Notes under the pieces: generated by a model | Seen by the model: only the letters and a program-made list of their open reading frames with translations | The model's database searches: none | Told to the model about the DNA's origin: nothing | Shown here: positions 33,037 to 64,000 of the stretch, piece by piece | Numbering within the stretch: the stretch's first letter is position 1 | How the letters are laid out: each line of letters starts with the position of its first letter | DNA from: Escherichia coli | Lineage (GTDB): Bacteria; Pseudomonadota; Gammaproteobacteria; Enterobacterales; Enterobacteriaceae | NCBI RefSeq assembly: GCF_041886205.1 | Contig: NZ_CP169030.1 | Reading direction: 5' to 3' (one strand) | DNA: 64,000 nt | Translations under genes and position numbers: made by a program

Positions 33037-33053
33037 TTACTAAATGAAGGAGA

Positions 33054-41466: not shown

Positions 41467-41520
41467 GGTTACATGTAACACAGGTGTAAAACCGCCAAAG
41501 CCCGGCGTAAGCCGGTACGG
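41467..41520. repeat. 54-bp GC-rich element with internal palindrome CCGGC..GCCGG, copy 1
   Basis: GGTTACATGT...GTAAAACCGCC(A/G)AAGCCCGGCGTAAGCCGGTACGG; second copy at 63652-63705. Confidence 0.6.
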
Positions 41521-41565
41521 TCGTCCGAATATCACCAGTCCCACTCCGGCCCTGCGAGGCCATGT

Positions 41566-41603
41566 GGGGGGAACCGCAGAATTCGGAAAAAATCGTACGC
41601 TAA
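41566..41603 (+). repeat. 38-bp terminal inverted repeat (mcp end) GGGGGAACCGCAGAATTCGGAAAAAATCGTACGCTAAG
   Basis: Read directly. Confidence 0.85.
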
Positions 41604-41755
41604 GCTAACGGTGTTCTCGTGACAGCTCTTTGACTAGGCTTTCTAAGGCCATTCTGATAGCCCTGACTTCCTGAAAAGCCATGGCTAAAATTTGTGCGGC
41701 TAAAAGGGATAACCGATGGTAAAGTAAGTTATCCCTGTCGAGATACTGAAAAGCG

Positions 41756-43333: not shown

Positions 43334-43625
43334 AAGAACCTCAAGGGTTGGCTGTTTTATTTTATTGTTTTCGGCATTAAGCCCAATTTCTTGAGCGTTA
43401 CGATAAAGCTAGCATGGAAACGATAGGTGCAAGCAAGTTAAGGGTTGCATCGCGCATGTCAATCTAGGCTATACCCTAACTTGATGTCAGGCAGGGCCGC
43501 GCCGCTTCGTCAGAATAGAGTCTGCTTTCCCATTTTTTGACACATGCCCGCGAAGGTTATAGATTTCAGCCTGACAGAAATGGGCTTTGAGGCACAACGG
43601 AACAGAAAGTGCACTTAAGCCGCCT

Positions 43626-43650
43626 TGTCATTTTCAGAAGACGACTGCAC
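43626..43650 (+). repeat. Tn402 IRt (TGTCATTTTCAGAAGACGACTGCAC)
   Basis: Read directly. Confidence 0.85.
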
Positions 43651-43766
43651 CAGTTGATTGGGCGTAATGGCTGTTGTGCAGCCAGCTCCTGACAGTTCAA
43701 TATCAGAAGTGATCTGCACCAATCTCGACTATGCTCAATACTCGTGTGCACCAAAGCGAGGTGAGC

Positions 43767-45446: not shown

Positions 45447-46357
45447 CCGTGGACGAATATCCCATCATCGACCTGTCCCACCTGCTGCCGGCGGCCCAGG
45501 GCTTGGCCCGTCTTCCGGCGGACGAGCGCATCCAGCGCCTTCGCGCCGACCGCTGGATCGGCTATCCGCGCGCAGTCGAGGCGCTGAACCGGCTGGAAGC
45601 CCTTTATGCGTGGCCAAACAAGCAACGCATGCCCAACCTGCTGCTGGTTGGCCCGACCAACAATGGCAAGTCGATGATCGTCGAGAAGTTCCGCCGCACC
45701 CACCCGGCCAGCTCCGACGCCGACCAGGAGCACATCCCGGTGTTGGTCGTGCAGATGCCGTCCGAGCCGTCCGTGATCCGCTTCTACGTCGCGCTGCTCG
45801 CCGCGATGGGCGCGCCGCTGCGCCCACGCCCACGGTTGCCGGAAATGGAGCAACTGGCTCTGGCACTGCTGCGCAAGGTCGGCGTGCGCATGCTGGTGAT
45901 CGACGAGCTGCACAACGTGCTGGCCGGCAACAGCGTCAACCGCCGGGAATTCCTCAACCTGCTGCGCTTCCTCGGCAACGAACTGCGCATCCCGTTGGTT
46001 GGGGTAGGCACGCGCGACGCCTACCTAGCCATCCGCTCCGATGACCAGTTGGAAAATCGCTTCGAGCCGATGATGCTGCCGGTATGGGAGGCCAACGACG
46101 ATTGCTGCTCACTGCTGGCCAGCTTCGCCGCTTCGCTCCCGCTGCGCCGGCCTTCCCCAATTGCCACGCTGGACATGGCTCGCTACCTGCTCACACGCAG
46201 CGAGGGCACCATAGGGGAACTGGCGCACTTGCTGATGGCGGCGGCCATCGTCGCCGTGGAGAGCGGCGAGGAAGCGATCAACCATCGCACACTCAGCATG
46301 GCCGTTTACACCGGACCCAGCGAGCGGCGGCGGCAATTCGAGCGGGAACTGATGTGA
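45440..46357 (+). CDS. tniB: TniB ATP-binding protein
   Basis: Walker A GPTNNGKS; exact start codon uncertain. Confidence 0.8.
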   Translation: MVAVDEYPIIDLSHLLPAAQGLARLPADERIQRLRADRWIGYPRAVEALNRLEALYAWPNKQRMPNLLLVGPTNNGKSMIVEKFRRTHPASSDADQEHIPVLVVQMPSEPSVIRFYVALLAAMGAPLRPRPRLPEMEQLALALLRKVGVRMLVIDELHNVLAGNSVNRREFLNLLRFLGNELRIPLVGVGTRDAYLAIRSDDQLENRFEPMMLPVWEANDDCCSLLASFAASLPLRRPSPIATLDMARYLLTRSEGTIGELAHLLMAAAIVAVESGEEAINHRTLSMAVYTGPSERRRQFERELM

Positions 46358-47571
46358 AGCCTGCGCCGCGCTGGCCGCTGCATCCCGCCCCGAAAGAAGG
46401 CGAGGCGCTGTCCTCATGGCTCAACCGCGTGGCCCTTTGCTATCACATGGAGGAGCCCGACCTGCTGGAGCACGATCTTGGTCACGGCCAGGTCGATGAC
46501 CTGGACACCGCGCCACCACTCTCGCTGCTGGCGTTGCTTTCCCAGCGGAGCGGCATCGAGCTGGACCGGCTGCGCTGTATGAGTTTCGCCGGATGGGTGC
46601 CTTGGCTACTGGACAGCCTTGATGACCAGATTCCAGACGCCTTGGAAACCTATGCGTTTCAGCTCTCGGTGTTGCTGCCAAGACTCCGCCGTAAGACGCG
46701 ATCCATCACGAGCTGGCGTGCCTGGCTGCCCAGCCAGCCGATAAACCGCGCCTGTCCGCTCTGCCTGAGCGATCCGGAGAACCAAGCCGTACTGCTCGCG
46801 TGGAAGCTGCCCCTGATGCTGAGCTGCCCGCTGCATGGCTGCTGGCTGGAATCCTATTGGGGCGTGCCAGGGCGGTTTCTCGGCTGGGAGAACGCCGACG
46901 CCGAACCGCGCACCGCCAGCGACGCGATTGCGGCGATGGACCAGCGTACCTGGCAGGCACTGACAACCGGTCACGTGGAGCTGCCGCGCCGACGCATCCA
47001 CGCCGGATTGTGGTTTCGACTTCTTCGCACGCTGCTCGATGAGCTGAACACCCCGCTTTCCGCGTGCGGAACCTGCGCGGGGTATCCCCGCCAAGTCTGG
47101 GAAGGCTGCGGGCATCCGCTGCGTGCTGGGCAAAGTCTGTGGCGACCGTATGAAACCCTGAATCCGATAGTACGGTTACAGATGCTGGAGGCGGCGGCAA
47201 CGGCAATCAGCTTGATTGAGGTGAGGGACATCAGCCCGCCAGGCGAGCAGGCAAAGCTATTCTGGTCCGAGCCCCAAACCGGGTTCACCAGTGGCCTGCC
47301 GACGAAAGCGCCGAAGCCCGAGCCCATCAATCACTGGCAGCGTGCAGTCCAGGCCATCGACGAGGCCATCATTGAAGCGCGACACAACCCCGAGACGGCA
47401 CGCTCGCTGTTCGCGTTGGCTTCCTATGGTCGGCGCGATCCCGCTTCCTTGGAACGGTTGCGCGCCACCTTCGTGAAGGAAGGCATCCCGCCGGAATTTC
47501 TGTCACATTACCTGCCTGATGCACCCTTTGCATGTCTTAAACAAAATGACGGGTTAAGTGACAAATTTTGA
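46354..47571 (+). CDS. tniQ: TniQ
   Basis: 405 aa from GTG at 46354; ORF-track extension from 46084 judged spurious. Confidence 0.75.
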   Translation: MKPAPRWPLHPAPKEGEALSSWLNRVALCYHMEEPDLLEHDLGHGQVDDLDTAPPLSLLALLSQRSGIELDRLRCMSFAGWVPWLLDSLDDQIPDALETYAFQLSVLLPRLRRKTRSITSWRAWLPSQPINRACPLCLSDPENQAVLLAWKLPLMLSCPLHGCWLESYWGVPGRFLGWENADAEPRTASDAIAAMDQRTWQALTTGHVELPRRRIHAGLWFRLLRTLLDELNTPLSACGTCAGYPRQVWEGCGHPLRAGQSLWRPYETLNPIVRLQMLEAAATAISLIEVRDISPPGEQAKLFWSEPQTGFTSGLPTKAPKPEPINHWQRAVQAIDEAIIEARHNPETARSLFALASYGRRDPASLERLRATFVKEGIPPEFLSHYLPDAPFACLKQNDGLSDKF

Positions 47572-47617
47572 CGGATAGAGCTTTCCGGCTCACACTGTCA
47601 CATAATCGAACGTATAC

Positions 47618-48256
47618 GTGACGGGTGAAAAGGTGCTGATCGGCTACATGCGGGTATCGAAGGCGGACGGATCCCAGTCCACCAATTTGCAACGCGATGC
47701 GCTCATCGCCGCTGGTGTGAGCCTTGCGCACCTTTACGAGGATCTGGCCTCGGGCAGGCGCGATGATCGCCCAGGGTTGGCTGCTTGCCTGAAGGCGCTT
47801 CGTGAAGGGGACACGCTGATCGTGTGGAAGCTCGATCGGCTTGGCCGTGATCTGCGCCACCTGATCAACACCGTGCACGACCTAACTGCGCGTAGCGTGG
47901 GCCTGAAGGTCCTGACCGGTCACGGTGCGGCGGTCGACACGACGACTGCCGCCGGCAAGCTTGTGTTCGGTATTTTTGCCGCGCTGGCCGAGTTCGAGCG
48001 TGAGTTGATTTCCGAGCGAACAGTCGCTGGACTTATCTCGGCGCGCGCTCGCGGCAGGAAAGGGGGGCGCCCCTTCAAGATGACCGCCGCCAAGCTACGC
48101 CTGGCGATGGCCAGCATGGGGCAACCGGAAACCAAGGTGGGCGATCTCTGCGAAGAACTCGGGATTACCCGGCAGACGCTCTACCGGCACGTGTCGCCCA
48201 AGGGCGAACTGCGGCCAGACGGCGTAAAGCTGCTCTCCCTCGGTTCAGCCGCATAA
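47618..48256 (+). CDS. tniR: TniR (TniC) serine resolvase
   Basis: 212 aa; N-terminal LIGYMRVSKADGSQ serine-recombinase motif. Confidence 0.8.
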   Translation: MTGEKVLIGYMRVSKADGSQSTNLQRDALIAAGVSLAHLYEDLASGRRDDRPGLAACLKALREGDTLIVWKLDRLGRDLRHLINTVHDLTARSVGLKVLTGHGAAVDTTTAAGKLVFGIFAALAEFERELISERTVAGLISARARGRKGGRPFKMTAAKLRLAMASMGQPETKVGDLCEELGITRQTLYRHVSPKGELRPDGVKLLSLGSAA

Positions 48257-48460
48257 ATGGAGGCGACCTGGAACGGGGCGCTGTTCAGTGCGGCAACGAT
48301 CCGATTACCGGTGTCGACCCAGAGCAGCCGTAGAGCTTTTGGGAAAGCTGTCGTTCAACGTTTGACGTGAGGGGCCGCCGTAGCGGCGAAGCCGCGAAGG
48401 GAACCCGCAAGCGCAGCTTGTGGGCGGTCCCTCTCGACGGAATGGTTAGATGCGACCGTT

Positions 48461-48793
48461 TTAGTGAACACTTGCCTTAGATAGCAAGTTGAGCACAGCA
48501 ACGCCGCTGATAATGAAGCCGACACCAACAAATCCCCACATATCTAGTTTTTGACCATGCAAAACCCATGCAATCGCAGTGACCAAGACGATCCCGAGGC
48601 CCGACCAAACTGCGTAGGCGATTCCAACAGGAATCGATTTGAGTGTCAGCGACAGGAAATAAAAAGCAGCAGCGTATCCCGCTACGACGATAAAAGACGG
48701 TACTAACCTAGTAAAGCCCTCACTAGACTTGAGCGCAGAGGTTGCAATGACCTCAAAAATAATGGCCGTAGCCAGAAATAACCAATTTTTCAA
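48461..48793 (-). CDS. qac: SMR-family quaternary-ammonium efflux protein on a gene cassette (qacE-related, full length)
   Basis: 110 aa (TTG start) immediately downstream of attI1; intact SMR C-terminus ...[10 protein letters not shown] rather than the qacEdelta1 tail. Confidence 0.75.
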
Positions 48794-48895
48794 AATATTT
48801 CTCCATGGAGTTCCGCGAAGAAATTTTAGGTTCGATTTAAGAAAAAAAACAGTCTTGTTGCTGGCCGAAATTTGTGCGCACAGCAAAGCATCTAA

Positions 48896-48960
48896 CTTTG
48901 TTTTAGGGCGACTGCCCTGCTGCGTAACATCGTTGCTGCTCCATAACATCAAACATCGAC
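48896..48960 (-). promoter_or_regulatory. attI1 integron recombination site (copy 1, intact)
   Basis: GCCCTAAAACAAAG|TTA junction read on minus strand at 48893-48909. Confidence 0.65.
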
Positions 48961-49031
48961 CCACGGCGTAACGCGCTTGCTGCTTGGATGCCCGAGGCAT
49001 AGACTGTACAAAAAAACAGTCATAACAAGCC

Positions 49032-50045
49032 ATGAAAACCGCCACTGCGCCGTTACCACCGCTGCGTTCGGTCAAGGTTCTGGACCAGTTGCGTGAGCGC
49101 ATACGCTACTTGCATTACAGTTTACGAACCGAACAGGCTTATGTCCACTGGGTTCGTGCCTTCATCCGTTTCCACGGTGTGCGTCACCCGGCAACCTTGG
49201 GCAGCAGCGAAGTCGAGGCATTTCTGTCCTGGCTGGCGAACGAGCGCAAGGTTTCGGTCTCCACGCATCGTCAGGCATTGGCGGCCTTGCTGTTCTTCTA
49301 CGGCAAGGTGCTGTGCACGGATCTGCCCTGGCTTCAGGAGATCGGAAGACCTCGGCCGTCGCGGCGCTTGCCGGTGGTGCTGACCCCGGATGAAGTGGTT
49401 CGCATCCTCGGTTTTCTGGAAGGCGAGCATCGTTTGTTCGCCCAGCTTCTGTATGGAACGGGCATGCGGATCAGTGAGGGTTTGCAACTGCGGGTCAAGG
49501 ATCTGGATTTCGATCACGGCACGATCATCGTGCGGGAGGGCAAGGGCTCCAAGGATCGGGCCTTGATGTTACCCGAGAGCTTGGCACCCAGCCTGCGCGA
49601 GCAGCTGTCGCGTGCACGGGCATGGTGGCTGAAGGACCAGGCCGAGGGCCGCAGCGGCGTTGCGCTTCCCGACGCCCTTGAGCGGAAGTATCCGCGCGCC
49701 GGGCATTCCTGGCCGTGGTTCTGGGTTTTTGCGCAGCACACGCATTCGACCGATCCACGGAGCGGTGTCGTGCGTCGCCATCACATGTATGACCAGACCT
49801 TTCAGCGCGCCTTCAAACGTGCCGTAGAACAAGCAGGCATCACGAAGCCCGCCACACCGCACACCCTCCGCCACTCGTTCGCGACGGCCTTGCTCCGCAG
49901 CGGTTACGACATTCGAACCGTGCAGGATCTGCTCGGCCATTCCGACGTCTCTACGACGATGATTTACACGCATGTGCTGAAAGTTGGCGGTGCCGGAGTG
50001 CGCTCACCGCTTGATGCGCTGCCGCCCCTCACTAGTGAGAGGTAG
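49032..50045 (+). CDS. intI1: class 1 integron integrase IntI1 (copy 1)
   Basis: 337 aa; matches recalled IntI1 sequence. Confidence 0.95.
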
Positions 50046-50222
50046 GGCAGCGCAAGTCAATCCTGGCGGATTCACTACCCCTGCGCGAAGGCCATCGGTG
50101 CCGCATCGAACGGCCGGTTGCGGAAAGTCCTCCCTGCGTCCGCTGATGGCCGGCAGCAGCCCGTCGTTGCCTGATGGATCCAACCCCTCCGCTGCTATAG
50201 TGCAGTCGGCTTCTGACGTTCA

Positions 50223-50247
50223 GTGCAGCCGTCTTCTGAAAACGACA
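50223..50247 (+). repeat. Tn402 IRi (internal copy)
   Basis: GTGCAGCCGTCTTCTGAAAACGACA read directly. Confidence 0.85.
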
Positions 50248-50329
50248 TTTGAACCGGGAACCTTCCCTTTTTGGCTAGGCGTGAAACAATGGTCATTTTC
50301 CCTATACCCAAAATGACCAGGAGGCCCGC

Positions 50330-50407
50330 ATGAAAGTCGCACGCATCTACCTGCGCGTGAGCACGGAGGAACAAGACCTAAGCCGGCAGGATGCCATCGT
50401 GGAGAGC
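50330..50407 (+). pseudogene. 5' fragment of a serine resolvase gene (MKVARIYLRVSTEEQDLSRQDAIVES), truncated by the 88-bp repeat
   Basis: 26 codons with serine-recombinase N-terminal motif, then abrupt junction. Confidence 0.5.
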
Positions 50408-50495
50408 TTAAATAAGACCGTCCCGTAAATTTCAGCCGAATCCGACAAAAAGGCGTGAAGATTTCCTTTAAATAGAGAGACCGAAGGTCATCCTT
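50408..50495 (+). repeat. 88-bp direct repeat flanking the tet(M) segment, copy 1
   Basis: TTAAATAAGACCGTCCCGTAAATTTCAGCCGAATCCGACAAAAAGGCGTGAAGATTTCCTTTAAATAGAGAGACCGAAGGTCATCCTT; identical at 52999-53086. Confidence 0.85.
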
Positions 50496-50968
50496 TTCCT
50501 AAAAAAGGGGGGGGCCATGGTTCCAAGATGTAAAATCGAGGGCTAATTCAGGCTATACTTGAACTATCCTTAATGGAATCTTTAGCCAGCGGTATCAACG
50601 AAGCAAGAAACATCGAAGACTAATTAAAAGAATCCATACATAACGGAAAGAGCCGATAAAATGAGATTGTATTAATCTCATTTTATCGGCTCTGCGTCTT
50701 TGCGTCTGGCTCTGTAATCGCAGTTACTTTGAACTGCTTTATTTCAATTAAATTTTCTTGTCTGCATTTCGGACAATAGAGGGGGAATTTTTTTAATTCA
50801 GTATCTTCCCTTATCTTTAATCGTGTTTTATTTCCACATACAGGACACAATATCCACTTGTAGTTTATAATAACTATCTCCTCCTTTACACTTTAATTCA
50901 AATCTTTATTAAAAAATATTTCATCTTATTTAACAAGAAACCATATTTATATAACAACATAAAATACA

Positions 50969-52888
50969 CTAAGTTATTTTATTGAACATATATCGTACTT
51001 TATCTATCCGACTATTTGGACGACGGGGCTGGCAAACAGGTTCACCGGTAGTAACATGGTACCCTTTTAACTCTGTTAAACAAACACTACGTCCATTTGT
51101 AAAGAAAGTTAAATCACTACGATATTCTTGAATACACCGAGCAGGGATTTCTCCACTAAGAATGACCTCATTATTTTTCAATTGAGTGTCTACGATGTTC
51201 GCACAATATTTAGGAGCATCGTTGTATGCTCGTGAAAGATATTCCTGTGGCGCATAAATTTTAAAACTAAGATATGGCTCTAACAATTCTGTTCCAGCTT
51301 TTTTTAAGACTTGTTCCAATACAATAGGAGCAAGCATCCGAAAATCTGCTGGGGTACTAACAGGGCTATAGTATAAGCCATACTTAAAACAGATTTTACA
51401 GTCCGTCACATTCCAACCATACAATCCTTGTTCACAGCCATAGCGTATCCCTTCCATAACTGCATTTTGAAATGATTGATTTAAGTATCCAAGAGAAACC
51501 GAGCTCTCATACTGCATTCCACTTCCCAACGGAAGCGGTGATACAGATAAACCAATGGAAGCCCAGAAAGGATTTGGCGGCACTTCGATGTGAATGGTAT
51601 ATTCTGCATTTTTTAACGGTCTCTCCATATAAATGACTGTAGGCTCTTTTAGTTCTATCTCCACATGATACTTTTCTTGCAACAGTGCACTAATCACTTC
51701 CATTTGTACTTTCCCTAAGAAAGAAAGTATAATTTCATGTGTCGTAGAATCCACGTAATATCGTAGAAGCGGATCACTATCTGAGATTTCCAAAAGGGCA
51801 TCAAGCAACATTTCTCTCTGTTCAGGTTTACTCGGTTCAACAGTTGTTTGTAGTAGAGGGTGCGGATTTTCAATCTTTTTTCTCTGTGGCAATAGTTTTG
51901 TATCTCCAAGAACACTATTTAACTTCAAAAACTCATTTTGCAAAATAACAATTTCCCCGGAATAAGCCTTATCGATTTTACATAATTCACCATTTATTGA
52001 AGTATACATTTCTGTAATTTTTATTTTTTCCTTTTCCGATATTCTAACCGAATCTCGCAAATGCAGTACGCCACTATAAAGACGTATATATGCAAGACGT
52101 TGTCTTTTTTTTGTATATTCAATTTTGAAAACATTTCCGCAAAGTTCAGACTGACCTCGATGTGTTGATGAATAAAATTTATTCGTAATCACTTCTATAA
52201 GGTTATCAATCCCTATATTGTTTTTTGCACTTCCATGATAAAGAGGGAACAGAGAACAATTCTGAAATCTTATGCTTTCCTCTTGTTCGAGTTCCAATGC
52301 TTCTAATGATTTACCGGACATATATTTCTCTAAAAGGTCATCGTTTCCCTCTATTACCGTATCCCATTGTTCAGATTCGGTAAAGTTCGTCACACACATA
52401 TTAGGATACAGTTCTACCTTCTGTTTGATTACAATTTCGGCAGAAAGTTTCTCTTTAATATCCTGATAAACCGTTGATAAATCAATTCCATTTTGGTCAA
52501 TCTTATTGATAAAAAAGATTGTGGGAATCCCCATTTTCCTAAGTGCATGAAATAATATACGAGTTTGTGCTTGTACGCCATCTTTTGCAGAAATCAGTAG
52601 AATTGCCCCATCTAAAACTGATAATGAACGATATACTTCTGCTAAGAAATCCATATGTCCTGGCGTGTCTATGATGTTCACCTTCGTATTTTCCCACTGA
52701 AAAGAGGTTATTCCTGTCTGAATTGTAATTCCTCTCTGACGTTCTAAAAGCGTATTATCCGTCCTCGTTGTACCTTTGTCCACGCTTCCTAATTCTGTAA
52801 TCGCTCCACTGTTATATAATAAGCTTTCTGTTAAGGTAGTTTTTCCCGCATCAACATGAGCTAAAACTCCAATATTAATAATTTTCAT
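50969..52888 (-). CDS. tet(M): Tet(M) ribosomal-protection tetracycline resistance protein
   Basis: 639 aa from [39 protein letters not shown]...; translational GTPase fold; very close to recalled Tet(M). Confidence 0.95.
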
Positions 52889-52903
52889 GTGATTTTCCTC
52901 CAT

Positions 52904-52990
52904 TCAAAAGCCCAAAAGGGCATAAAAATCCCAGTGATAAATACTCTTATCACTGGGATTTTTATGCATAACCATAGGCATACAAAGCAT
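52904..52990 (-). CDS. tet(M) leader peptide (Tn916 orf12-like attenuation leader)
   Basis: 28 codons MLCMPMVMHKNPSDKSIYHWDFYALLGF directly upstream of tet(M). Confidence 0.7.
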   Translation of the reverse strand: MLCMPMVMHKNPSDKSIYHWDFYALLGF

Positions 52991-52998
52991 ACAGATAT

Positions 52999-53086
52999 TT
53001 AAATAAGACCGTCCCGTAAATTTCAGCCGAATCCGACAAAAAGGCGTGAAGATTTCCTTTAAATAGAGAGACCGAAGGTCATCCTT
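52999..53086 (+). repeat. 88-bp direct repeat flanking the tet(M) segment, copy 2
   Basis: Identical to 50408-50495. Confidence 0.85.
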
Positions 53087-53131
53087 GAAGAAGGAGTCCT
53101 CGGTGAGATTCAGAATGCCGAACACCGTCAC
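53087..53131 (-). pseudogene. sul1: sul1 5' fragment (codons 2-16: VTVFGILNLTEDSFF) fused to truncated attI1
   Basis: Minus-strand GTGACGGTGTTCGGCATTCTGAATCTCACCGAGGACTCCTTCTTC matches recalled sul1 start; joined at ...CAGCAGG|GTGACGG. Confidence 0.7.
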
Positions 53132-53247
53132 CCTGCTGCGTAACATCGTTGCTGCTCCATAACATCAAACATCGACCCACGGCGTAACGCGCTTGCTGCT
53201 TGGATGCCCGAGGCATAGACTGTACAAAAAAACAGTCATAACAAGCC

Positions 53248-54261
53248 ATGAAAACCGCCACTGCGCCGTTACCACCGCTGCGTTCGGTCAAGGTTCTGGA
53301 CCAGTTGCGTGAGCGCATACGCTACTTGCATTACAGCTTACGAACCGAACAGGCTTATGTCCACTGGGTTCGTGCCTTCATCCGTTTCCACGGTGTGCGT
53401 CACCCGGCAACCTTGGGCAGCAGCGAAGTCGAGGCATTTCTGTCCTGGCTGGCGAACGAGCGCAAGGTTTCGGTCTCCACGCATCGTCAGGCATTGGCGG
53501 CCTTGCTGTTCTTCTACGGCAAGGTGCTGTGCACGGATCTGCCCTGGCTTCAGGAGATCGGAAGACCTCGGCCGTCGCGGCGCTTGCCGGTGGTGCTGAC
53601 CCCGGATGAAGTGGTTCGCATCCTCGGTTTTCTGGAAGGCGAGCATCGTTTGTTCGCCCAGCTTCTGTATGGAACGGGCATGCGGATCAGTGAGGGTTTG
53701 CAACTGCGGGTCAAGGATCTGGATTTCGATCACGGCACGATCATCGTGCGGGAGGGCAAGGGCTCCAAGGATCGGGCCTTGATGTTACCCGAGAGCTTGG
53801 CACCCAGCCTGCGCGAGCAGCTGTCGCGTGCACGGGCATGGTGGCTGAAGGACCAGGCCGAGGGCCGCAGCGGCGTTGCGCTTCCCGACGCCCTTGAGCG
53901 GAAGTATCCGCGCGCCGGGCATTCCTGGCCGTGGTTCTGGGTTTTTGCGCAGCACACGCATTCGACCGATCCACGGAGCGGTGTCGTGCGTCGCCATCAC
54001 ATGTATGACCAGACCTTTCAGCGCGCCTTCAAACGTGCCGTAGAACAAGCAGGCATCACGAAGCCCGCCACACCGCACACCCTCCGCCACTCGTTCGCGA
54101 CGGCCTTGCTCCGCAGCGGTTACGACATTCGAACCGTGCAGGATCTGCTCGGCCATTCCGACGTCTCTACGACGATGATTTACACGCATGTGCTGAAAGT
54201 TGGCGGTGCCGGAGTGCGCTCACCGCTTGATGCGCTGCCGCCCCTCACTAGTGAGAGGTAG
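53248..54261 (+). CDS. intI1: class 1 integron integrase IntI1 (copy 2)
   Basis: Identical 337-aa translation to copy 1; at least one silent nucleotide difference (49121 T vs 53337 C). Confidence 0.95.
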
Positions 54262-54438
54262 GGCAGCGCAAGTCAATCCTGGCGGATTCACTACCCCTGC
54301 GCGAAGGCCATCGGTGCCGCATCGAACGGCCGGTTGCGGAAAGTCCTCCCTGCGTCCGCTGATGGCCGGCAGCAGCCCGTCGTTGCCTGATGGATCCAAC
54401 CCCTCCGCTGCTATAGTGCAGTCGGCTTCTGACGTTCA

Positions 54439-54463
54439 GTGCAGCCGTCTTCTGAAAACGACA
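54439..54463 (+). repeat. Tn402 IRi (outer copy) followed by target duplication CGCCT
   Basis: Read directly. Confidence 0.85.
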
Positions 54464-54485
54464 CGCCTTCAACCAAGGAGACATC

Positions 54486-55046
54486 GTGCAGGGGCACCGC
54501 ATCGGCTACGTCCGGGTCAGCAGCTTTGACCAGAACCCGGAACGCCAGCTGGAACAAACCCAGGTGAGCAAGGTGTTCACCGACAAGGCATCGGGCAAGG
54601 ACACCCAGCGCCCCCAGCTCGAAGCGCTGCTGAGCTTCGTCCGCGAAGGCGATACAGTGGTGGTGCACAGCATGGATCGGCTGGCCCGCAACCTCGATGA
54701 CCTGCGTCGCTTGGTACAGAAGCTGACTCAGCGCGGCGTGCGCATCGAGTTCCTGAAGGAGGGCCTGGTGTTCACTGGCGAGGACTCGCCGATGGCCAAC
54801 CTGATGCTGTCGGTGATGGGGGCCTTCGCTGAGTTCGAGCGCGCCCTGATCCGCGAGCGGCAGCGTGAGGGCATCGCCTTGGCCAAGCAGCGTGGCGCGT
54901 ACCGGGGCCGCAAGAAAGCCCTGTCCGATGAGCAGGCTGCTACCCTGCGGCAGCGAGCGACGGCCGGCGAGCCCAAGGCGCAGCTTGCCCGCGAGTTCAA
55001 CATCAGCCGGGAAACCCTCTACCAGTACCTCCGCACGGACGACTGA
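54486..55046 (+). CDS. tnpR: Tn3-family serine resolvase TnpR
   Basis: 186 aa MQGHRIGYVRVSSFDQNPERQ...; IRi lies only 22 bp upstream, i.e. within the expected res region. Confidence 0.9.
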   Translation: MQGHRIGYVRVSSFDQNPERQLEQTQVSKVFTDKASGKDTQRPQLEALLSFVREGDTVVVHSMDRLARNLDDLRRLVQKLTQRGVRIEFLKEGLVFTGEDSPMANLMLSVMGAFAEFERALIRERQREGIALAKQRGAYRGRKKALSDEQAATLRQRATAGEPKAQLAREFNISRETLYQYLRTDD

Positions 55047-55049
55047 CAC

Positions 55050-58016
55050 ATGCCGCGTCGCTTGATCCTCTCGGCCACGGAGCGGGACACCCTGCTTGCG
55101 CTGCCGGAAAGCCAGGATGACCTGATCCGCTACTACACCTTCAACGACTCCGACCTGTCGCTGATCCGCCAGCGACGCGGCGACGCCAACCGCCTCGGCT
55201 TCGCCGTGCAGCTCTGCCTGCTGCGCTACCCCGGTTACGCGCTGGGAACCGACAGCGAGCTGCCCGAGCCGGTCATCCTGTGGGTGGCGAAGCAAGTCCA
55301 GGCCGAGCCGGCGAGCTGGGCAAAGTACGGCGAGCGCGACGTGACCCGTCGCGAGCATGCCCAGGAACTGCGCACCTACCTGCAACTGGCCCCGTTCGGC
55401 CTGTCCGACTTCCGCGCCCTGGTGCGCGAGCTAACCGAGCTGGCCCAGCAGACCGACAAAGGCTTGCTGCTGGCCGGTCAGGCCCTGGAGAGCCTACGGC
55501 AGAAACGACGCATCCTGCCGGCGCTGAGCGTGATTGACCGGGCCTGCTCGGAAGCCATTGCGCGAGCCAATCGGCGGGTCTACCGCGCCCTGGTCGAACC
55601 ACTCACGGACTCGCATCGGGCCAAGCTGGACGAGCTGTTGAAGCTCAAGGCCGGCAGCAGCATCACCTGGTTGACCTGGCTGCGCCAGGCACCGCTGAAA
55701 CCCAACTCTCGGCACATGCTGGAACACATCGAGCGGCTGAAGACATTTCAGTTGGTGGACTTGCCCGAAGGCCTGGGCCGGCACATCCACCAGAACCGCC
55801 TGCTCAAGCTGGCCCGCGAGGGTGGGCAGATGACGCCCAAAGACCTCGGTAAGTTCGAGCCGCAGCGCCGCTACGCGACCCTGGCCGCCGTGGTGCTGGA
55901 GAGCACCGCGACCGTGATCGATGAGCTGGTCGATCTGCATGACCGCATCCTGGTCAAGCTGTTCAGCGGCGCGAAGCACAAGCATCAGCAGCAGTTCCAG
56001 AAGCAGGGCAAGGCGATCAACGACAAGGTGCGCCTGTACTCCAGGATCGGCCAGGCGCTGCTGGAAGCGAAGGAAAGCGGCAGCGACCCCTATGCCGCCA
56101 TCGAGGCGGTGATTCCCTGGGACGAGTTCACCGAGAGCGTCAGCGAGGCCGAGCTGCTGGCCCGGCCGGAAGGCTTCGACCACCTGCACCTGGTCGGCGA
56201 GAACTTCGCCACCCTGCGCCGTTACACGCCGGCCTTGCTGGAGGTGCTGGAACTGCGCGCCGCGCCGGCCGCGCAAGGCGTGCTGGCAGCCGTGCAGACC
56301 CTGCGTGAGATGAACGCCGACAACCTGCGCAAGGTGCCGGCCGATGCACCCACGGCCTTCATCAAGCCGCGCTGGAAGCCGCTGGTGATCACCCCGGAAG
56401 GCCTCGACCGGAAATTCTACGAAATCTGCGCCCTGTCCGAGCTGAAGAACGCCCTGCGCTCCGGCGACATCTGGGTCAAGGGCTCGCGGCAGTTCCGCGA
56501 CTTCGACGACTACCTGCTGCCGGCCGAGAAGTTCGCCGCACTCAAGCGCGAGCAGGCCCTGCCCCTGGCGATCAACCCGAACAGCGACCAGTACCTGGAA
56601 GAGCGTTTGCAGCTGCTGGACGAGCAGTTGGCCACCGTCACCCGCCTGGCCAAGGACAACGAGCTGCCCGATGCCATCCTCACCGAGTCAGGGCTGAAAA
56701 TCACCCCGCTGGATGCGGCGGTGCCGGATCGGGCGCAGGCGCTGATCGACCAAACCAGCCAGTTACTGCCGCGCATCAAGATCACCGAACTGCTGATGGA
56801 CGTGGACGACTGGACGGGCTTCAGCCGCCACTTCACCCACTTGAAGGACGGGGCCGAGGCCAAAGACAGGACGTTGCTGCTGTCCGCAATCCTCGGTGAT
56901 GCGATCAACCTCGGGCTGACCAAGATGGCCGAGTCGAGCCCCGGCCTGACCTACGCCAAGCTGTCCTGGCTGCAAGCCTGGCACATCCGCGACGAAACCT
57001 ATTCGGCGGCCTTGGCCGAGCTGGTCAACCACCAGTATCGCCACGCCTTTGCCGCCCACTGGGGCGACGGCACGACCTCATCCTCCGATGGCCAGCGCTT
57101 CCGCGCGGGTGGCCGGGGCGAGAGCACCGGGCACGTCAACCCGAAGTACGGTAGCGAGCCGGGACGGCTGTTCTATACCCATATCTCCGACCAGTACGCG
57201 CCGTTCAGCACCCGCGTGGTGAATGTCGGCGTCCGCGATTCCACCTATGTGCTCGACGGCCTGCTGTACCACGAGTCCGACCTGCGGATCGAGGAGCACT
57301 ACACCGACACGGCCGGCTTCACCGATCACGTCTTTGCCCTGATGCACCTGCTAGGCTTCCGCTTCGCGCCGCGCATCCGCGACCTCGGCGAAACCAAGCT
57401 GTACGTGCCGCAGGGCGTGCAAGCCTACCCGACGTTGCGCCCGCTGATCGGCGGCACCCTGAACATCAAGCACGTGCGTGCCCACTGGGACGACATCCTG
57501 CGCCTGGCCAGCTCGATCAAGCAGGGCACCGTCACCGCCTCGCTGATGCTGCGCAAGCTCGGCAGCTACCCGCGCCAGAACGGACTGGCCGTGGCCCTGC
57601 GCGAGCTGGGCCGGATCGAGCGCACGCTGTTCATCCTGGACTGGCTGCAAAGTGTTGAACTGCGCCGCCGCGTGCATGCCGGCCTGAACAAAGGTGAGGC
57701 GCGCAACTCGCTGGCCAGGGCGGTGTTCTTCAACCGCCTTGGGGAAATCAGGGATCGGAGCTTCGAGCAGCAGCGCTACCGGGCCAGCGGCCTCAACCTG
57801 GTGACGGCGGCTATCGTGCTGTGGAACACGGTGTACCTGGAACGCGCCACCCAGGGGTTGGTCGAGGCCGGCAAGCCGGTGGACGGCGAGCTGCTGCAAT
57901 TCCTGTCGCCGCTGGGCTGGGAGCACATCAACCTAACCGGCGATTACGTCTGGCGGCAGAGCCGCAGACTGGAAGACGGGAAGTTTCGGCCCTTACGGAT
58001 GCCCGGAAAACCTTAG
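55050..58016 (+). CDS. tnpA: Tn3-family transposase TnpA
   Basis: 988 aa; reads toward the terminal inverted repeat. Confidence 0.9.
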
Positions 58017-58049
58017 CGTACGATTTTTTCCGAATTCTGCGGGCTCCCC
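58012..58049 (-). repeat. 38-bp terminal inverted repeat (tnpA end) GGGGAGCCCGCAGAATTCGGAAAAAATCGTACGCTAAG
   Basis: Read directly as reverse complement; overlaps tnpA stop. Confidence 0.85.
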
Positions 58050-58567
58050 TTGTTTGTACGATTCGATATCGATACTGCGTAATGGCCGGTACTTCCCTGT
58101 ACCCAGCTTAAGATTATTACGCCAGACATCATCCCCATTAAGATTGATATGCTCCCAGCCCAACGGCGAAAGGTGAGTGCAGTTGGTCATTAATCGGGAG
58201 CTTTTTTCGTTTCAGGGACTCAATGGCTCTTTCTATGTATACCGTGTTCCATAATTTTTCACTCCGTTGAAAACGGAGTACGTGGCAATCGTATCAGTGA
58301 TACAGTTGAGGCAATTGACACGAATACCCTTTCCGGTATTGATGGCATCAGTTGAAGAGCATGTTATTCTCTTGAGCTATTTGTGCCACACAGGCGCGGG
58401 GGGCGTTTTTTACCACGGGGACTTCGGGCATAAAAACAAGGGGCCGCAAACACGGCCCTTAATTCAGATCTAACCGGGTACGCTATCTGTTGCCCTGGAA
58501 AATTGATCTGACAACTCAGTAAAGATCAATACGGTTCTGACGAGCAGCTTACCTGCCTGTTTGCGTT

Positions 58568-59863
58568 TCAGAGCTTATTCTCTGCTGTCTGATAGCCACG
58601 GCTGAGACGAACAAACAGCATTGCCGTTGCGGCGAGTCCGCATAGCGCCGCGCACATGAGCCACCACCCCGGAGAACTCTTATCGCCGGTCAACTGGACC
58701 AATGCGGTGGAGATAGCAGGCGTCAGGCCGCCGAAAATCGCAGTCGCAAGACTAAAGGCCAGCGAAAAACCCACGGTTCGGACATAAACCGGCATCACTT
58801 CGGTCAGGGCCGCCACCATCGCACCGTTATACATGCCAAAAAAGAACGAGAACCAGAGCAGCACCAACGTCATGCGGGTGAAGTCAGGGGCAGCGGTAAG
58901 CCAGTTCATCACCGGCCAGGTGGTGACGAGGGCGAGCAAGGTGATGCCCATCAGCACCGGGCGTCGCCCGATCCGATCAGAGATAGCGCCGCCAATCGGC
59001 AGCCAGATGAAGTTAGAAATCCCTACCAGCATGGTGACAACCAGGCTGTCACGTGCGCTCAGGTTCAACACCGTTCTCCCGTAAGTGGGGGTATAGACAG
59101 TAATAAAATAAAAGGTCGTGGTCGTCATCGCTACCAGCAGGGTACCCGCGGTGATGATGCGCCAGTTTTTAGCAATGGTGGTAAAAATTTCCCGGGTGTC
59201 CGGACGGTGTTTACGTTGTAAAAAGGCTTCAGTTTCCTGTAGCGAACGTCGAAGAACAAAAATCAGCGGAATAATCATGCAGCCAATGAAGAACGGGATT
59301 CGCCAACCCCATTCGGAGATTTCATCGTGTCCCAGCGTGACATTCAGACCGTAGCCGATCAGCGCGGCGACGACAATCGCCACCTGCTGGCTGGCCGATT
59401 GCCAACTGGTGTAAAAGCCTTTATTGCCTGGTGTAGCGATCTCAGAAAGATAAACAGAGACGCCGCCCAGTTCGACGCCAGCAGAAAATCCCTGTAGCAG
59501 ACGCCCCACCAGGACCAGCACGGGAGCCAGCAGGCCGATAGTCTGATAACCCGGCACGAGGGCGATGAGCAGCGTGCCGCAGCCCATAATCGCCAGGGTG
59601 ACCATCAGCCCTTTCCGTCGGCCGATTCTGTCGATATATGCGCCCAACACCACGGCCCCGATAGGGCGCATTAAAAATCCGGAGCCAAAAACGGCAAAAG
59701 TAAGCATTAATGCGGCAAACTCACTTTCGGCAGGAAAAAACGTCTTTGCGATATAAGTGGCGTAAAAACCAAACAGGAAAAAATCGAACTGTTCGAGAAA
59801 ATTACCGCTGGTCACACGCAGTATTGCGCCGAACGTGCCAGCGCGCGATGGTTGTTGAGTCAT
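58568..59863 (-). CDS. tcuC: MFS transporter, tricarballylate/citrate-type (TcuC-like)
   Basis: 431 aa, 12-TM MFS; located downstream of tcuA/tcuB. Confidence 0.65.
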
Positions 59864-59917
59864 TGAAGTTGCTCCACTGTCTTATCAGAATTATGTATAG
59901 AGGTAAGAGTTTGCGGG

Positions 59918-61057
59918 TTAGTCGCCTGAGACCCCCGCCTGTTTTCCACGTCGCTTCTCAATCGCCCATTTGAGTAAAGACGCGCAGCGGTAAAATCCGT
60001 GGGCAAATTTTCCGTATGGAATGGTCAAAAAAAGCGCCATGACCACGCCAAGATGGATGGCAAGCAGGATCCCCATCCATGAGGTGTCTCTTCCCGCCAG
60101 CAAACCTATACCGGTCAGGCTGGTCAGGAGCAGCAGTAAAATAAAACCGCGATCCATCGGTTTCTGTCGCGCGTCGCCATGCAGTGGCGAGCGCTTAAGG
60201 TTTAACCACAGCAGGCCTGCCGGGCCGACAATTAAACCGATTCCTCCGAGCGTGCCAAGCATGACCGGCACGCTGAAGAACGGGTAGGGGGCTTCCCAAC
60301 CGGCGAAGTAGTGGTAACCCGTCGCCACCACGGTCGCGGCGAAACAGAGCATAAAGCCGTAGAAGGTGAAATGGTGGAAACGACGACGCATCAATGTGAA
60401 AGCATCGTCCGCCTCGTTGCAGCCTTTGCCATGACCGCCGTCGAGGTATTTCAGCGTCAGCGCGTTGTGCGACGCTTCGGCAATTTCCGCCGGACGCGGC
60501 CCGACGTGAGAGATCTCGCGCCAGAAGCGGATCACCCCTGCCATTAGTAAACCGATCGCCAGCATGAAAACCGATCCAAACATCCATGCCAGCAGGTTGT
60601 GCGGGAAGATTTGGTAGAAATCACCGGCCAGCGGCGGATGGAGTAGCGATCCCTTCATCCCCATCGCGAGGAGTAAAAAGAGGATCAGACTAAAGACCAG
60701 TGCCAGCGTCACGGTGACGCCAGCCTGGCGATACAGCGCCCCGAAGGCCGCCGGTTGCGCGTAGTGTTGATACGTTTCCAGACGCACTTCCGCCATTGCT
60801 TTCGGCACGTTAATCGCAAACTCATGGGGTGGAGCATACTGGCAGGCGTGCAGGCAGGCGCCGCAGTTATGGCACAGGTTTGCCAGATAGTTAATGTCGG
60901 CTTTGCCAAATTCCAGTCGCTGAGTCATCGCCGGGAACACGGCGCAAAACCCTTCGCAATAGCGACAGGCATTACACACCTGCATCACCCGCTCGACTTC
61001 AGCTTCTGGCTCGGTGAGAATTTTGGCCTCGATGATCAGTTTTTCAAGCTGCTTCAT
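59918..61057 (-). CDS. tcuB: TcuB-like Fe-S membrane protein
   Basis: 379 aa from ATG at 61055-61057 (MKQLEKLI...); two Cys clusters [11 protein letters not shown] and [11 protein letters not shown]; overlaps tcuA stop. Confidence 0.7.
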
Positions 61058-62447
61058 GATGCGCCTCCTTACGTGCTGCCTGCGCGGCTTCTTTACCTGC
61101 GATGCGACCAAACGTGGTGCCGATGGACATGCCGACACCGGCGGTATAGCCCTTGCCCAGTACGTTGCCAGCCATCATCTCACCGGCAACGAACAGGTTA
61201 CGGCTGGGGGTGCCTGCGAAGTGAACCGCAGCGTGTTCATTCACTTTCAGTCCCAGGTAGGTAAAGGTGATCCCCGGTCGCAGGGCATAACCGTAGTAAG
61301 GGGGCGTATTAATAGGCCGCGCCCAGTGCGTTTTCGGTGGCGTCAGGCCCTGAGTCGCGCAGTTATCCAGCTTCGTGTGATCAAACTGACCCGGCTGACA
61401 GGCCTGATTGTAGTGCTCCACGGTATGGGTAAAGCGTTCGGGATCCAGCCCCAACTGGCGGGCCAGTTCACTCAGCGTATTGGCCTGTGCGCCGGGGAAA
61501 ACCGGCGGCATAAAGTGACCGATCGCTTTGCTGTCGATAATGGAGTAGCCAATCTGCCCCGGCTGTTGGGCAACCAGACGCCCCCAGATGGCATAGCGTT
61601 TCGGCCAGAAATCTTCGCCTTCATCGTAAAAGCGCTCCGCGTCCCGGTTGACTACCACACCCAGTGAGACGCAATCCACGCGGGTACAAATGCCGCCGTC
61701 GTACAACGGAGCCCGGGCATCAATCGCCACACAGTGGGACTGAGACGGATCGCCGATAATGTCAGCACCGGCATCGATCATAAACTTGAGCAAGACGCCC
61801 TGATTAAAGCGGGTGCCGCGAATGAGGAAGTTATCGGCTGGCCATTCGCCACGAGCGTTCTCTCCCCAGGCGTCGCGCAGCCATTCGCGGTTGGATTCAA
61901 ATCCACCGGCGGCGAGTACGCAGGCTTTCGCCTCAATGCGCTCGTGGCCTGCCAGGGCTGCGATGAATTCGCCGTTGTGCAATTCAAGTGCCTGTACCGG
62001 CGTGTTGTAGCGAATCTGTACCCCCAGCTTTTCTGCGCTGCGGTAATAGGCGTTCACGAGGGCTTTACCGCCGCCCATGAAGAAGGCATTGGTACGCGCC
62101 ACGTGCAGCGCGCCAGAGAGCGGAGGCTGAAAATTAACGCCGTGATGACGCATCCAGTCGCGACACTGGGAAGAGGTCCGGATCACCAGTCGCGCCAACG
62201 CTTCATTGGTATTGCCTTCGGTGACACGCCAGAGATCCTGCCAGAACTCCTCTTCGGGATAACTCTCGACCAGCACATCCTGTGGCGCATCGTGCATACA
62301 GCGTAAATTGCGCGTGTGTTGGGAATTCCCGCCGCGCCATTCCCGGGGCGCAGCCTCTAACAGCAGCACGGAAGCTCCTGCCTCACGGGCGGTTAAGGCG
62401 GCACATAACGCGGCATTACCACCGCCAATCACCAGTACATCAACCAT
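61044..62447 (-). CDS. tcuA: TcuA-like FAD-dependent tricarballylate dehydrogenase
   Basis: 467 aa; N-terminal [14 protein letters not shown] dinucleotide-binding motif. Confidence 0.7.
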
Positions 62448-62543
62448 CGTCTACTCCATTACCATTTAACTATTTGTTAAATTTGTAATTGAAATGTATA
62501 CGTATGATTGTATGGGCGCTATAACGAATAGCTAAAGATGGGT

Positions 62544-63470
62544 TTAGGGAGCGTAAAGGGTTGCGCCCGGCCAATGACCGGTTTCAACGAGTTCACGCAT
62601 GACTTTTGTGAGTATTACGCGGACTGCAAGACCGGCAGGGGTGAGTTCATCGTCCGACAGACTGACCAGAAAATTGGGGCGGCTGAGGACAGGATTATGG
62701 ACGCCGATCACTCTTAGCGCTTCCCTCTCAAGATGCGAAATGGCTGCACCGGGTTGCAGCGTGGCGCCGAGTCCGCTGCTAACGGCGCGCATCAGTAACG
62801 TCAGGCCGTCAATTTCCGTGGCAATATCGACCTTCAGTCCGTGTTCCTGACAGATGGCTTCCAGTCTGCCACGCAGGCCGTGTCCCTGGCTTGGCATGAT
62901 CAGGGGAATATTCGCCAGTTGAGCAGGCGTTATGGTGTCATCCGGAATATCCGCCAGCAGCTCGTGTGTGCCAATCAGAAACAGGCGCTCCTCAAGAACC
63001 GGTCTGGCGTTCCAGCGCAGGATTTTCTCTTTTTGAAACACGACCGCCAGATCAATCTGGCGCGTGTTGATCATCCGTTCCAGATTACCCGACAGGCTTT
63101 CCACCACATGCAGGCGAACGTCGGCGTAATGTTCCCGCATGGCATGAATAAACGGTATTCCCAGGATGGAGGCGGTGCTGGGGGCCATGCCGACGCTGAC
63201 GTGTCCAGAGAGACGCGCCTCGCGAGAGGCCAAGATCGCATCATCGGCGTGGCGTAGCGCCAATTGTGCCTGCGAGTAAAAAGCCAGACCGGCGTTAGTG
63301 GGCGTGACGCCGCGCGAGGTTCGTTGCAACAGACGAATGGAGAGTTCATTCTCCAGCCTCGTCATCTGTTGACTAAGTGCTGAGACACCGATACCGAGAT
63401 CAAGCGCCGCAATGCCCATACTACCGGTTTCCACAATACGAACAAAATAACGTAGCTGGCGAAGTTCCAT
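62544..63470 (-). CDS. tcuR: LysR-family transcriptional regulator (TcuR-like)
   Basis: 308 aa; N-terminal LysR HTH MELRQLRYFVRIVETGS. Confidence 0.7.
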   Translation of the reverse strand: MELRQLRYFVRIVETGSMGIAALDLGIGVSALSQQMTRLENELSIRLLQRTSRGVTPTNAGLAFYSQAQLALRHADDAILASREARLSGHVSVGMAPSTASILGIPFIHAMREHYADVRLHVVESLSGNLERMINTRQIDLAVVFQKEKILRWNARPVLEERLFLIGTHELLADIPDDTITPAQLANIPLIMPSQGHGLRGRLEAICQEHGLKVDIATEIDGLTLLMRAVSSGLGATLQPGAAISHLEREALRVIGVHNPVLSRPNFLVSLSDDELTPAGLAVRVILTKVMRELVETGHWPGATLYAP

Positions 63471-63651
63471 TGCGATTCTCCGGAGAAGGCTGGGATATTT
63501 ACATTAAATCAACATGCTGTCAGAAGAAAGCACTAAGTAGAGAATGGCGCGCATAACAAAACAACCGACAGGTTGACTTTTCAGAATAGGGGCAGTTTGG
63601 TGATCGTCACCAGTATATGCAGCGTCAGCTGCATGGAAGGCGGCACGCTGT

Positions 63652-63705
63652 GGTTACATGTGATACCGGAGTAAAACCGCCGAAGCCCGGCGTAAGCCGG
63701 TACGG
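63652..63705. repeat. 54-bp GC-rich palindromic element, copy 2
   Basis: About 85 percent identical to 41467-41520. Confidence 0.6.
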
Positions 63706-64000
63706 ATTGACAGATTTCACCTTACCCATCCCTTGCCCTGCCAGACCATACCTGCTTTCAGCCATGACAGAGCTTTTGTGCGCGGTCGGAGTGGTCCCGA
63801 CGAGGGTTTACCCGAAGTCGGGGCGTATCTCCGCGTTAGCGGGCCATCAGGGCCGCTTACGAGCGTGTACTCAATACTTCCAGCGAGAAGACTGACAGCG
63901 ATGAAGATGTAGTTACAACATTCATAATTAAAAGCGACTCTGTTCCGGCCCTTTGGGCCGGGGCGGGGCCGCTTTTCAGTTATGAGGGTGGGGCTTTGTG

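Follow-up and report, generated by a model that had tools for sequence, protein, structure and literature searches.

What does a tricarballylate utilization locus, familiar from the Salmonella chromosome, do on a stretch of Escherichia coli DNA that bears plasmid replicons and resistance transposons, and how did it arrive there? The genes in question occupy positions 58568-63470 of the 64 kb of DNA analyzed here, the whole of which we call the window. The reading we prefer, at a probability of about 0.88, is that they form an intact and probably functional tcuRABC system, that is the plasmid 'Cit' determinant citA/citB together with a dehydrogenase and a regulator, which is carried as accessory cargo beside a RepFIC/IncFII replicon, has a Citrobacter-like origin and predates the adjoining transposon.

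The open reading frame listing contains four intact minus-strand genes without internal stops, tcuR, tcuA, tcuB and tcuC, and these are real gene content and not a chance pattern. The tcuR gene (62544-63470) is intact, encodes a LysR-type regulator of 308 amino acids with HTH_1 and LysR_substrate domains, and lies directly upstream of tcuABC in the same orientation. NCBIfam holds no model named TcuR, and the top match there, NAC, scores below the NAC cut-off; public records of identical sequence carry the TcuR annotation. The FAD-dependent tricarballylate dehydrogenase encoded by tcuA (61044-62447, 467 amino acids) reaches 791 bits against the TcuA equivalog NF006130 (cut-off 369) and exhibits a GGGNAA dinucleotide-binding motif for FAD at its N-terminus. 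The product of tcuB (old name citB; 59918-61057), a membrane 4Fe-4S protein, matches the TcuB model NF011607 with 712 bits (cut-off 524) and contains the CxxCxxCxxxC motif twice (residues 28 and 62) as well as about five hydrophobic segments. Its reading frame is listed as 59918-61138, but the gene actually begins with the ATG at 61057, which yields 379 amino acids, is preceded by the Shine-Dalgarno sequence AAGGAGG and causes tcuB to overlap the end of tcuA by 14 nt. The last gene of the operon, tcuC (old name citA; 58568-59863), specifies an MFS (MHS-type) tricarballylate/citrate:proton symporter of 431 amino acids (TcuC model NF011656, 733 bits, cut-off 445). Judged by these signatures, the locus is a TcuRABC tricarballylate utilization system in all four of its components.

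The earlier note had recognized the tcuRABC arrangement and likened it to that of Salmonella, and on both points our analysis agrees. In Salmonella enterica LT2, the subject of work by Lewis et al. (2004) and of studies on TcuA (2006) and TcuB (2007), all cited within PMC10468695 and PMC8593673, the chromosomal locus reads fur-tcuRABC-ybfN, and the four genes share order, orientation and the tcuA/tcuB overlap with those in the window. In the Salmonella locus used for this comparison, the termini of TcuC match the LT2 cloning primers given in PMC10468695. Protein identities amount to 86.7% for TcuR, 92.7-93% for TcuA, 88.9% for TcuB and 94.0% for TcuC, the latter having 431 residues in the window versus 434 in Salmonella and a different N-terminus. 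At the nucleotide level identity is only 80.6%, and the Salmonella copy is chromosomal whereas that in the window resides on an F-like plasmid.

We infer the expression, substrate range and phenotype of the window copy from the Salmonella system, the mechanistic references for which are cited within PMC10468695 and PMC8593673. In the presence of tricarballylate, the LysR-type activator TcuR would switch on tcuABC. TcuC would take up tricarballylate, and likewise citrate, in symport with protons, and the FAD enzyme TcuA would oxidize tricarballylate to cis-aconitate, which could enter the TCA cycle. Reoxidation of the flavin would fall to TcuB, a membrane-bound protein with two 4Fe-4S clusters and haem, which would deliver the electrons to the respiratory chain. 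The tcuABC promoter is presumed to lie in the tcuR-tcuA intergenic region (62448-62543, minus strand), where a LysR-type dyad, GCTAT-N5-ATAGC, can be read within a T-N11-A pattern; a consensus promoter scan of this spacer found none.

The four genes belong to a conserved unit of 5.04 kb (58555-63588, minus strand), as delimited by alignments with copies from Citrobacter amalonaticus, from plasmid R27 and from E. coli. According to the boundary alignments, the module ends coincide with the positions of the terminator hairpins of the chromosomal loci. The region upstream of tcuR (63471-63589, minus strand) has as its outer end the hairpin located just 3' of fur in those loci, and at the other end only half of the native tcuC/ybfN terminator hairpin is left, the break being at 58553. 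Another terminator-like hairpin is present at 58441-58458 (minus strand), about 110 nt 3' of tcuC and beyond the conserved module. A search for terminal repeats or insertion sequences that would make the module itself mobile found none.

The earlier note had set a citrate system against the tricarballylate reading, but this is no true alternative. On the IncHI1 plasmid R27 the TcuC and TcuB genes are named citA and citB and described as 'citrate transport' (PMC7366339). TcuA, TcuB and TcuC are 98.4-99.8% identical between R27 and the window (TcuC 98.4%, TcuB 99.2%), and the carrier and tcuB genes of the window are by sequence orthologs of R27 citA/citB. Since the R27 determinant consists of these very genes, 'tricarballylate' and 'citrate' are two readings of one system. 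The copies differ at their ends: R27 has kept roughly 31 nt of fur and a complete terminator hairpin, and both are trimmed in the window. A further difference exists with respect to Tn3411, a composite transposon with flanking IS3411: no insertion sequence or transposase gene directly flanks the tcu module among the open reading frames of the window, its neighbors being a Tn3-family fragment and a Tn1721 inverted repeat on the left and the RepFIC backbone on the right.

Which of the two activities has been selected for in E. coli is a separate matter. The species is devoid of an aerobic citrate carrier, and TcuC alone should also provide the classical, plasmid-determined citrate-positive phenotype. 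It is thus conceivable, though in our estimation appreciably less probable than the contrary, that aerobic citrate uptake via TcuC/CitA is the selected function and that tricarballylate oxidation by TcuA and TcuB is incidental. The identity of TcuC to R27 CitA is in line with this, as is its UniRef name, 'Citrate-proton symporter'. Citrate-utilizing plasmids are moreover documented in livestock E. coli and among H1 plasmids, and references in PMC6385356 and PMC2842699 attribute citrate utilization to H1 and other E. coli plasmids. On the other hand, tcuA, tcuB and tcuR have all been kept intact and nearly identical in about 18 F-type plasmids, which argues for selection of the whole pathway. 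Citrate uptake and tricarballylate oxidation are mutually compatible functions.

A second doubt about a functional tcuRABC system is that it might be a silent relic that has lost expression. Features that could be taken in this sense are the truncated native terminator, the mosaic 5' end of tcuR and the occurrence of a tcuC pseudogene in one relative. We nevertheless regard this as improbable, because all four reading frames are intact, the Shine-Dalgarno sequence and the tcuA/tcuB overlap are preserved and TcuC differs by a single residue from a chromosomally encoded Citrobacter protein.

That protein leads to the question of origin. According to a review, the origin of citrate-utilization plasmids 'appears to be obscure' (PMC2842699). 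A tentative idea was that a close chromosomal donor is lacking, C. youngae and a Raoultella metagenome-assembled genome reaching only about 82% nucleotide identity as the best species representatives among the matches listed, which included neither Salmonella nor C. amalonaticus; this was abandoned in view of the fur-tcuRABC-ybfN locus of C. amalonaticus (GCA_023035355.1 and related metagenome contigs). Over 5042 bp the fur-ybfN interval of this chromosome is 97.9% identical to the module and its ends match exactly, rendering it the nearest source found, compared with 80.6% for Salmonella. TcuC is 99.8% identical to a C. amalonaticus TcuC, and TcuR is 97% identical to Citrobacter TcuR proteins. 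The C. amalonaticus copy is embedded in a chromosomal core-genome context, unlike that on the F-like plasmid. Taken together, the alignments suggest that the module was captured from the fur-tcuRABC-ybfN locus of a C. amalonaticus-like bacterium. An origin from the E. coli chromosome was considered and rejected for the F-type module: the tcu copies located there, at ydeP-hipA, are 92-94.6% identical with ends as in the window module, and the Citrobacter match is much closer, above all in tcuR. The E. coli chromosomal copies, like R27, retain the last 31 nt or so of fur.

The module is not uniform in its relationships. Compared with R27 it is 95.9% identical as a whole and mostly 99-100% across tcuABC, but only 91% at the 3' end of tcuC and about 86% in tcuR (90% at the amino acid level), and must therefore be considered a mosaic. 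The tcuR gene is itself composite, being 98-99% identical to Citrobacter except for its 5' 250 nt with only 88.8%; it follows that the donor was not one single sampled genome. Classical F matches the window at 63446-63619 on the RepFIC side. Of the module it keeps just the first 25 nt (8 codons) of tcuR and the region upstream of that gene, a 144-bp remnant with the look of a scar left by deletion; at 63619 F bears a Tn1000 insertion. We lean, by a small margin, towards the wider proposal that all Cit/Tcu determinants on enterobacterial plasmids of the IncHI1 and F types, together with the E. coli ydeP-hipA copies, descend from capture of a C. amalonaticus-like fur-ybfN locus and that F arose by deletion from an ancestor with the tcu genes.

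The accessory, plasmid-like setting noted earlier is borne out: the window is F-like plasmid DNA throughout, and the top match of every segment is a plasmid of 77-115 kb. Positions 1-24701 are about 99% identical to F, the backbone from 1 to 39 kb resembles other (bovine) F-like plasmids and the part from 39 to 64 kb matches plasmid NZ_AP024116.1 at 100%. A RepFIB-type initiator with a Rep3_N domain lies at 1-978, about 57.6 kb from the tcu genes and hence within the 60 kb previously claimed. At the opposite end, the F backbone on the RepFIC/IncFII side (63590-64000) is followed in relatives by repA, about 465 bp past the end of the window, and then by finO and the tra genes, which are outside the window. 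Judged within these 64 kb, replicons and backbone point to an F-like (IncF) plasmid. An insertion of about 1.3 kb at 24702-26008 belongs to the IS3 family. The alternative entertained in the earlier note, a chromosome with an integrated F-like plasmid, draws on the ability of F to integrate and on the few E. coli chromosome records, for example of K-12 derivatives, that contain F sequence; it is very improbable here given that the entire window lacks chromosomal genes and that its best matches are all plasmids, including the perfect match to NZ_AP024116.1.

The resistance region immediately beside the tcu genes is a Tn1721-family composite transposon of 16.5 kb (41567-58050; features mapped from CP063715.1), with inverted repeats of 38 bp at its two ends (41567-41604 and 58013-58050). 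Its genes comprise one for an MCP, tni genes of Tn402 type, qacG2, tet(M) between two copies of intI1, tnpR and tnpA; it lacks the Tn1721 tet(A) segment found in NZ_AP024116.1 and CP063715.1. Clear 5-bp target duplications were looked for around the transposon and none were seen. The tcu module is situated outside its inverted repeats, with 517 bp separating the end of the nearer repeat from the stop codon of tcuC. Between the two remains the 3' fragment of a Tn3-family transposase gene (58051-58254, minus strand), a pseudogene that differs from the transposase gene of the adjoining transposon, is kept beside tcuC in the F-type tcu plasmids and is annotated as a frameshifted fragment in NZ_AP024116.1 and p5735-2. 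The bovine F-like plasmid p5735-2 has the arrangement CopG/RelE, Tn3 fragment, tcuCBAR and repA(IncFII) without the resistance transposon, and 41568-58049 of the window is consequently an insertion relative to it. The transposon is a separate insertion beside a tcu module that was resident earlier. The notion that the tcu genes were mobilized with the resistance region, as passengers of the adjacent transposons, is the least probable of all and is largely refuted: closeness to the inverted repeat and the intervening Tn3-family fragment might suggest it, but tcu lies beyond the repeats, p5735-2 shares the tcu-repA junction and the Tn3 fragment without the transposon, F has its tcuR scar at the corresponding site, and IncHI1 plasmids and E. 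coli chromosomes harbor the module without these transposons.

The tcu genes, their biochemistry and their carriage on plasmids are already established, and identical copies are annotated in GenBank/RefSeq. In practical terms, a plasmid of this type can turn E. coli citrate-positive and thereby confuse classical identification. It also places the use of a niche-specific carbon source on the same conjugative plasmid as multiple resistance, such that antibiotic use could co-select the metabolic trait and vice versa. In the rumen, trans-aconitate is converted to tricarballylate. An enrichment of tcu plasmids in bovine or ruminant hosts was considered but finds no support in the recorded hosts of the F-type copies, which are mostly human with a few veal, calf or bovine sources. 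Tracing the module to a Citrobacter-like fur-ybfN locus and to a scar in F is a minor evolutionary footnote.

In E. coli the module is rare, occurring in 33 of 5426 complete genomes. The F-type tcu plasmids (NZ_AP024116.1, CP063715.1, p5735-2 and others) are 99.3-100% identical to the window in this region and share its junction with the IncFII/FIC replicon, and PGAP already labels their genes tcuR, tcuA, tcuB and tcuC. That the trait can decay is seen in p5735-2, where a stop codon interrupts tcuC.

The locus is a plasmid-borne tcuRABC unit. As the earlier note had claimed, it consists of four genes. All four open reading frames lie on the minus strand: tcuR (62544-63470) for a LysR regulator of 308 aa with HTH_1 and LysR_substrate domains, tcuA (61044-62447) for an FAD enzyme of 467 aa with an N-terminal dinucleotide-binding motif, tcuB (59918-61057) for an Fe-S membrane protein of 379 aa with two CxxCxxCxxxC motifs and about five hydrophobic segments, and tcuC (58568-59863) for an MFS transporter of 431 aa. 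TcuA, TcuB and TcuC were assigned by the curated NCBIfam cut-offs for these families, which all three far exceed (791, 712 and 733 bits versus 369, 524 and 445, respectively); NCBIfam holds no dedicated TcuR model for the LysR regulator. The mechanical open reading frame of tcuB spans 59918-61138; its real start is the ATG at 61057, with AAGGAGG in front of it and an overlap of 14 nt with the end of tcuA. Internal stops were found in none of the four genes.

The same 90% cluster also includes a TcuA of Salmonella, and through it a Salmonella contig was reached; the gene order there is pgm-seqA-fldA-fur-tcuR-tcuA-tcuB-tcuC-ybfN-chiP-glnS, and the TcuC (N-terminus MAQHTP, C-terminus AENKA) agrees with the primers for cloning LT2 tcuC that PMC10468695 lists. 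Comparison with this locus, a check proposed in the earlier note, gave protein identities of 86.7% (TcuR), 92.7% (TcuA), 88.9% (TcuB) and 94.0% (TcuC) at a DNA identity of 80.6%, with gene order and overlap alike. By these identities, order and overlap the unit belongs to the tcuRABC family in every feature open to judgement from sequence.

A citrate system is not a distinct alternative. The 5.04-kb module (58555-63588) is 95.9% identical overall to that of the IncHI1 plasmid R27 (TcuC 98.4%, TcuB 99.2%, TcuA 99.8% at the protein level), where citA and citB are the names of the genes for TcuC and TcuB, described as 'involved in citrate transport' (PMC7366339). Citrate utilisation conferred by H1 and other E. 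coli plasmids has been recorded since the late 1970s, according to references in PMC6385356, PMC9830988 and PMC2842699. Furthermore, the exact TcuC of the window is still labelled 'Citrate-proton symporter' in UniRef, and Pfam names the TcuB family 'CitB'. The locus would thus be both a tricarballylate and a citrate system, and the distinction drawn in the earlier note is a matter of naming only. By homology, TcuR would activate tcuABC, TcuC would act as a substrate:proton symporter (PMC10468695), TcuA would oxidize tricarballylate to cis-aconitate, and the electrons from FADH2 would reach membrane acceptors through the 4Fe-4S clusters and haem of TcuB; the latter two functions are named in article titles by Lewis and Escalante-Semerena (2006, 2007), as cited in other papers, PMC10468695 and PMC8593673 among them. 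The tcuR-tcuA spacer (62448-62543) contains a LysR-type dyad, GCTAT-N5-ATAGC; a scan of the same spacer detected no consensus sigma-70 promoter.

Adjacency to resistance genes was borne out: a Tn1721-family composite transposon, bounded by 38-bp inverted repeats, occupies 41567-58050. Its genes comprise an MCP gene, Tn402-like tni genes, qacG2, tet(M) between two copies of intI1, tnpR and tnpA. The suggestion that both were mobilised together was not supported, since the tcu module lies outside the transposon boundaries and the bovine F-like plasmid p5735-2 has the order CopG/RelE - Tn3-family fragment - tcuCBAR - repA(IncFII) without the resistance transposon, aligning to 40696-41567 and then 58050-64000. 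The transposon is therefore a later arrival, inserted beside a pre-existing tcu module. The annotation marks the tcuC of p5735-2 (12016-13311) as a pseudogene interrupted by an internal stop, which points to decay of the trait in some lineages. The intI1 region is present in duplicate, as copies of 1333 bp (48915-50247 and 53131-54463) that are 99.9% identical to one reference and flank a low-GC segment (about 36%; within 48915-54463) with a leader peptide and tet(M), a Gram-positive-type gene here set in a class 1 integron/Tn402 context within Tn1721. In the closely related F-type tcu plasmids CP063715.1 and NZ_AP024116.1, Tn1721 is complete, tetR-tet(A) lying between tnpA and a second tnpA that is partial; window 55050-58050 (compared with record L001, 11263-19751) has one tnpA and no tet(A), the outcome that recombination of one tnpA with the other would give.

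The classical F plasmid (NZ_CP099589.1) matches the window up to 27214 and, after 26 unrelated bases, again at 63446-63619, with Tn1000 inserted at 63619; it is devoid of 27215-63445. The resumed stretch (6001-6174 of F) opens with the initial 25 nt of tcuR (MELRQLRY) plus 119 nt upstream, and the 26 bases connect this remnant to the EAL-gene region. The 144-bp scar matches the window at 143/144 positions, R27 and an E. coli chromosomal copy at 134/144 each, and the Citrobacter locus at 125/144. It is best read as the trace of a deletion, and supports a tcu module predating the resistance transposon. In about 35 other E. coli records this scar is all that is present. The slot adjoining repA is variable between plasmids: pC4101 (NZ_CP127254.1, 3837-6726), which has its backbone in common with window 1-38.7 kb, bears asrABC (anaerobic sulfite reductase) at the position next to repA(IncFII) that tcu occupies in the window. 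This would point to a site that takes up metabolic cargo genes repeatedly.

By sequence matches, F-like plasmid DNA makes up the whole window. Positions 1-24701 are about 99% identical to F and include ompP (4345-5292) and, at 1-978, the RepFIB-type initiator that the earlier note had reported; 27-38.8 kb matches bovine and environmental F-like plasmids, and 39001-64000 is 100% identical to NZ_AP024116.1, bar a 5.5-kb segment extra in the latter. The flank of an IncFII/FIC replicon follows at 63590-64000, repA lying about 465 bp past the window end in relatives. An integrated plasmid is improbable, with no chromosomal gene across the 64-kb window and no chromosome among the best matches. An IS3-family insertion sequence of about 1.3 kb (24702-26008) is missing from F. 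A defence-like pair at 30822-33953 consists of a KAP-family P-loop NTPase and, adjacent to it, a CAP12/Pycsar-type TIR-domain protein (33054-33953); the KAP gene, a single 2226-nt gene in pC4101, is seemingly split into overlapping frames (30822-31832, 31805-33004), and close by are a VapBC pair and, at 35334-37472, a large AAA ATPase.

Among cluster members compared, a C. amalonaticus protein shares 99.8% identity with TcuC, and a Citrobacter protein 97% with TcuR. The order fur-tcuRABC-ybfN occurs on the C. amalonaticus chromosome (GCA_023035355.1) and on three metagenome contigs; these match 58555-63588 at 97.9% nucleotide identity, confined exactly to the module. The copies in R27 and E. 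coli chromosomes also contain roughly 31 nt from the 3' end of fur, together with the whole tcuC-ybfN hairpin, which indicates that the mobile copies were excised from a chromosomal locus of this type. The window copy itself is a mosaic (62442-63589 versus 58853-62400): tcuABC is 99-100% identical to R27 and 95.6-100%, mostly 98-100%, to Citrobacter per 250-nt window, whereas most of tcuR is 98-99% identical to Citrobacter and about 86% to R27, with the same figure of about 86% for the copies on E. coli chromosomes. The 5' 250 nt of tcuR (R27 86.0%, Citrobacter 88.8%) reach about 89% at most with any copy found.

The module (at least 80% covered) occurs in 33 of 5426 complete E. coli genomes, in approximately 18 on F-type plasmids (99.3-100% nucleotide identity to the window), in approximately 7 on large plasmids of 217-273 kb (94-96%) and in approximately 11 on chromosomes (92-94.6%). 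In PLSDB (72,556 plasmids), 48 entries span 80% or more of 58300-64000, and all of these already have the PGAP labels tcuR/A/B/C or MFS transporter. The system is already known and annotated; only the tracing of its origin and the scar in F, both minor, go beyond database labels. In the two of the 11 chromosomal cases examined (NZ_CP076262.1, NZ_CP100994.1; 9001-14040), tcuRABC sits in the variable ydeP-hipA region, not between fur and ybfN; one of them shares 5467 bp with R27 at 97.7%, including flanks of about 200 bp on both sides.
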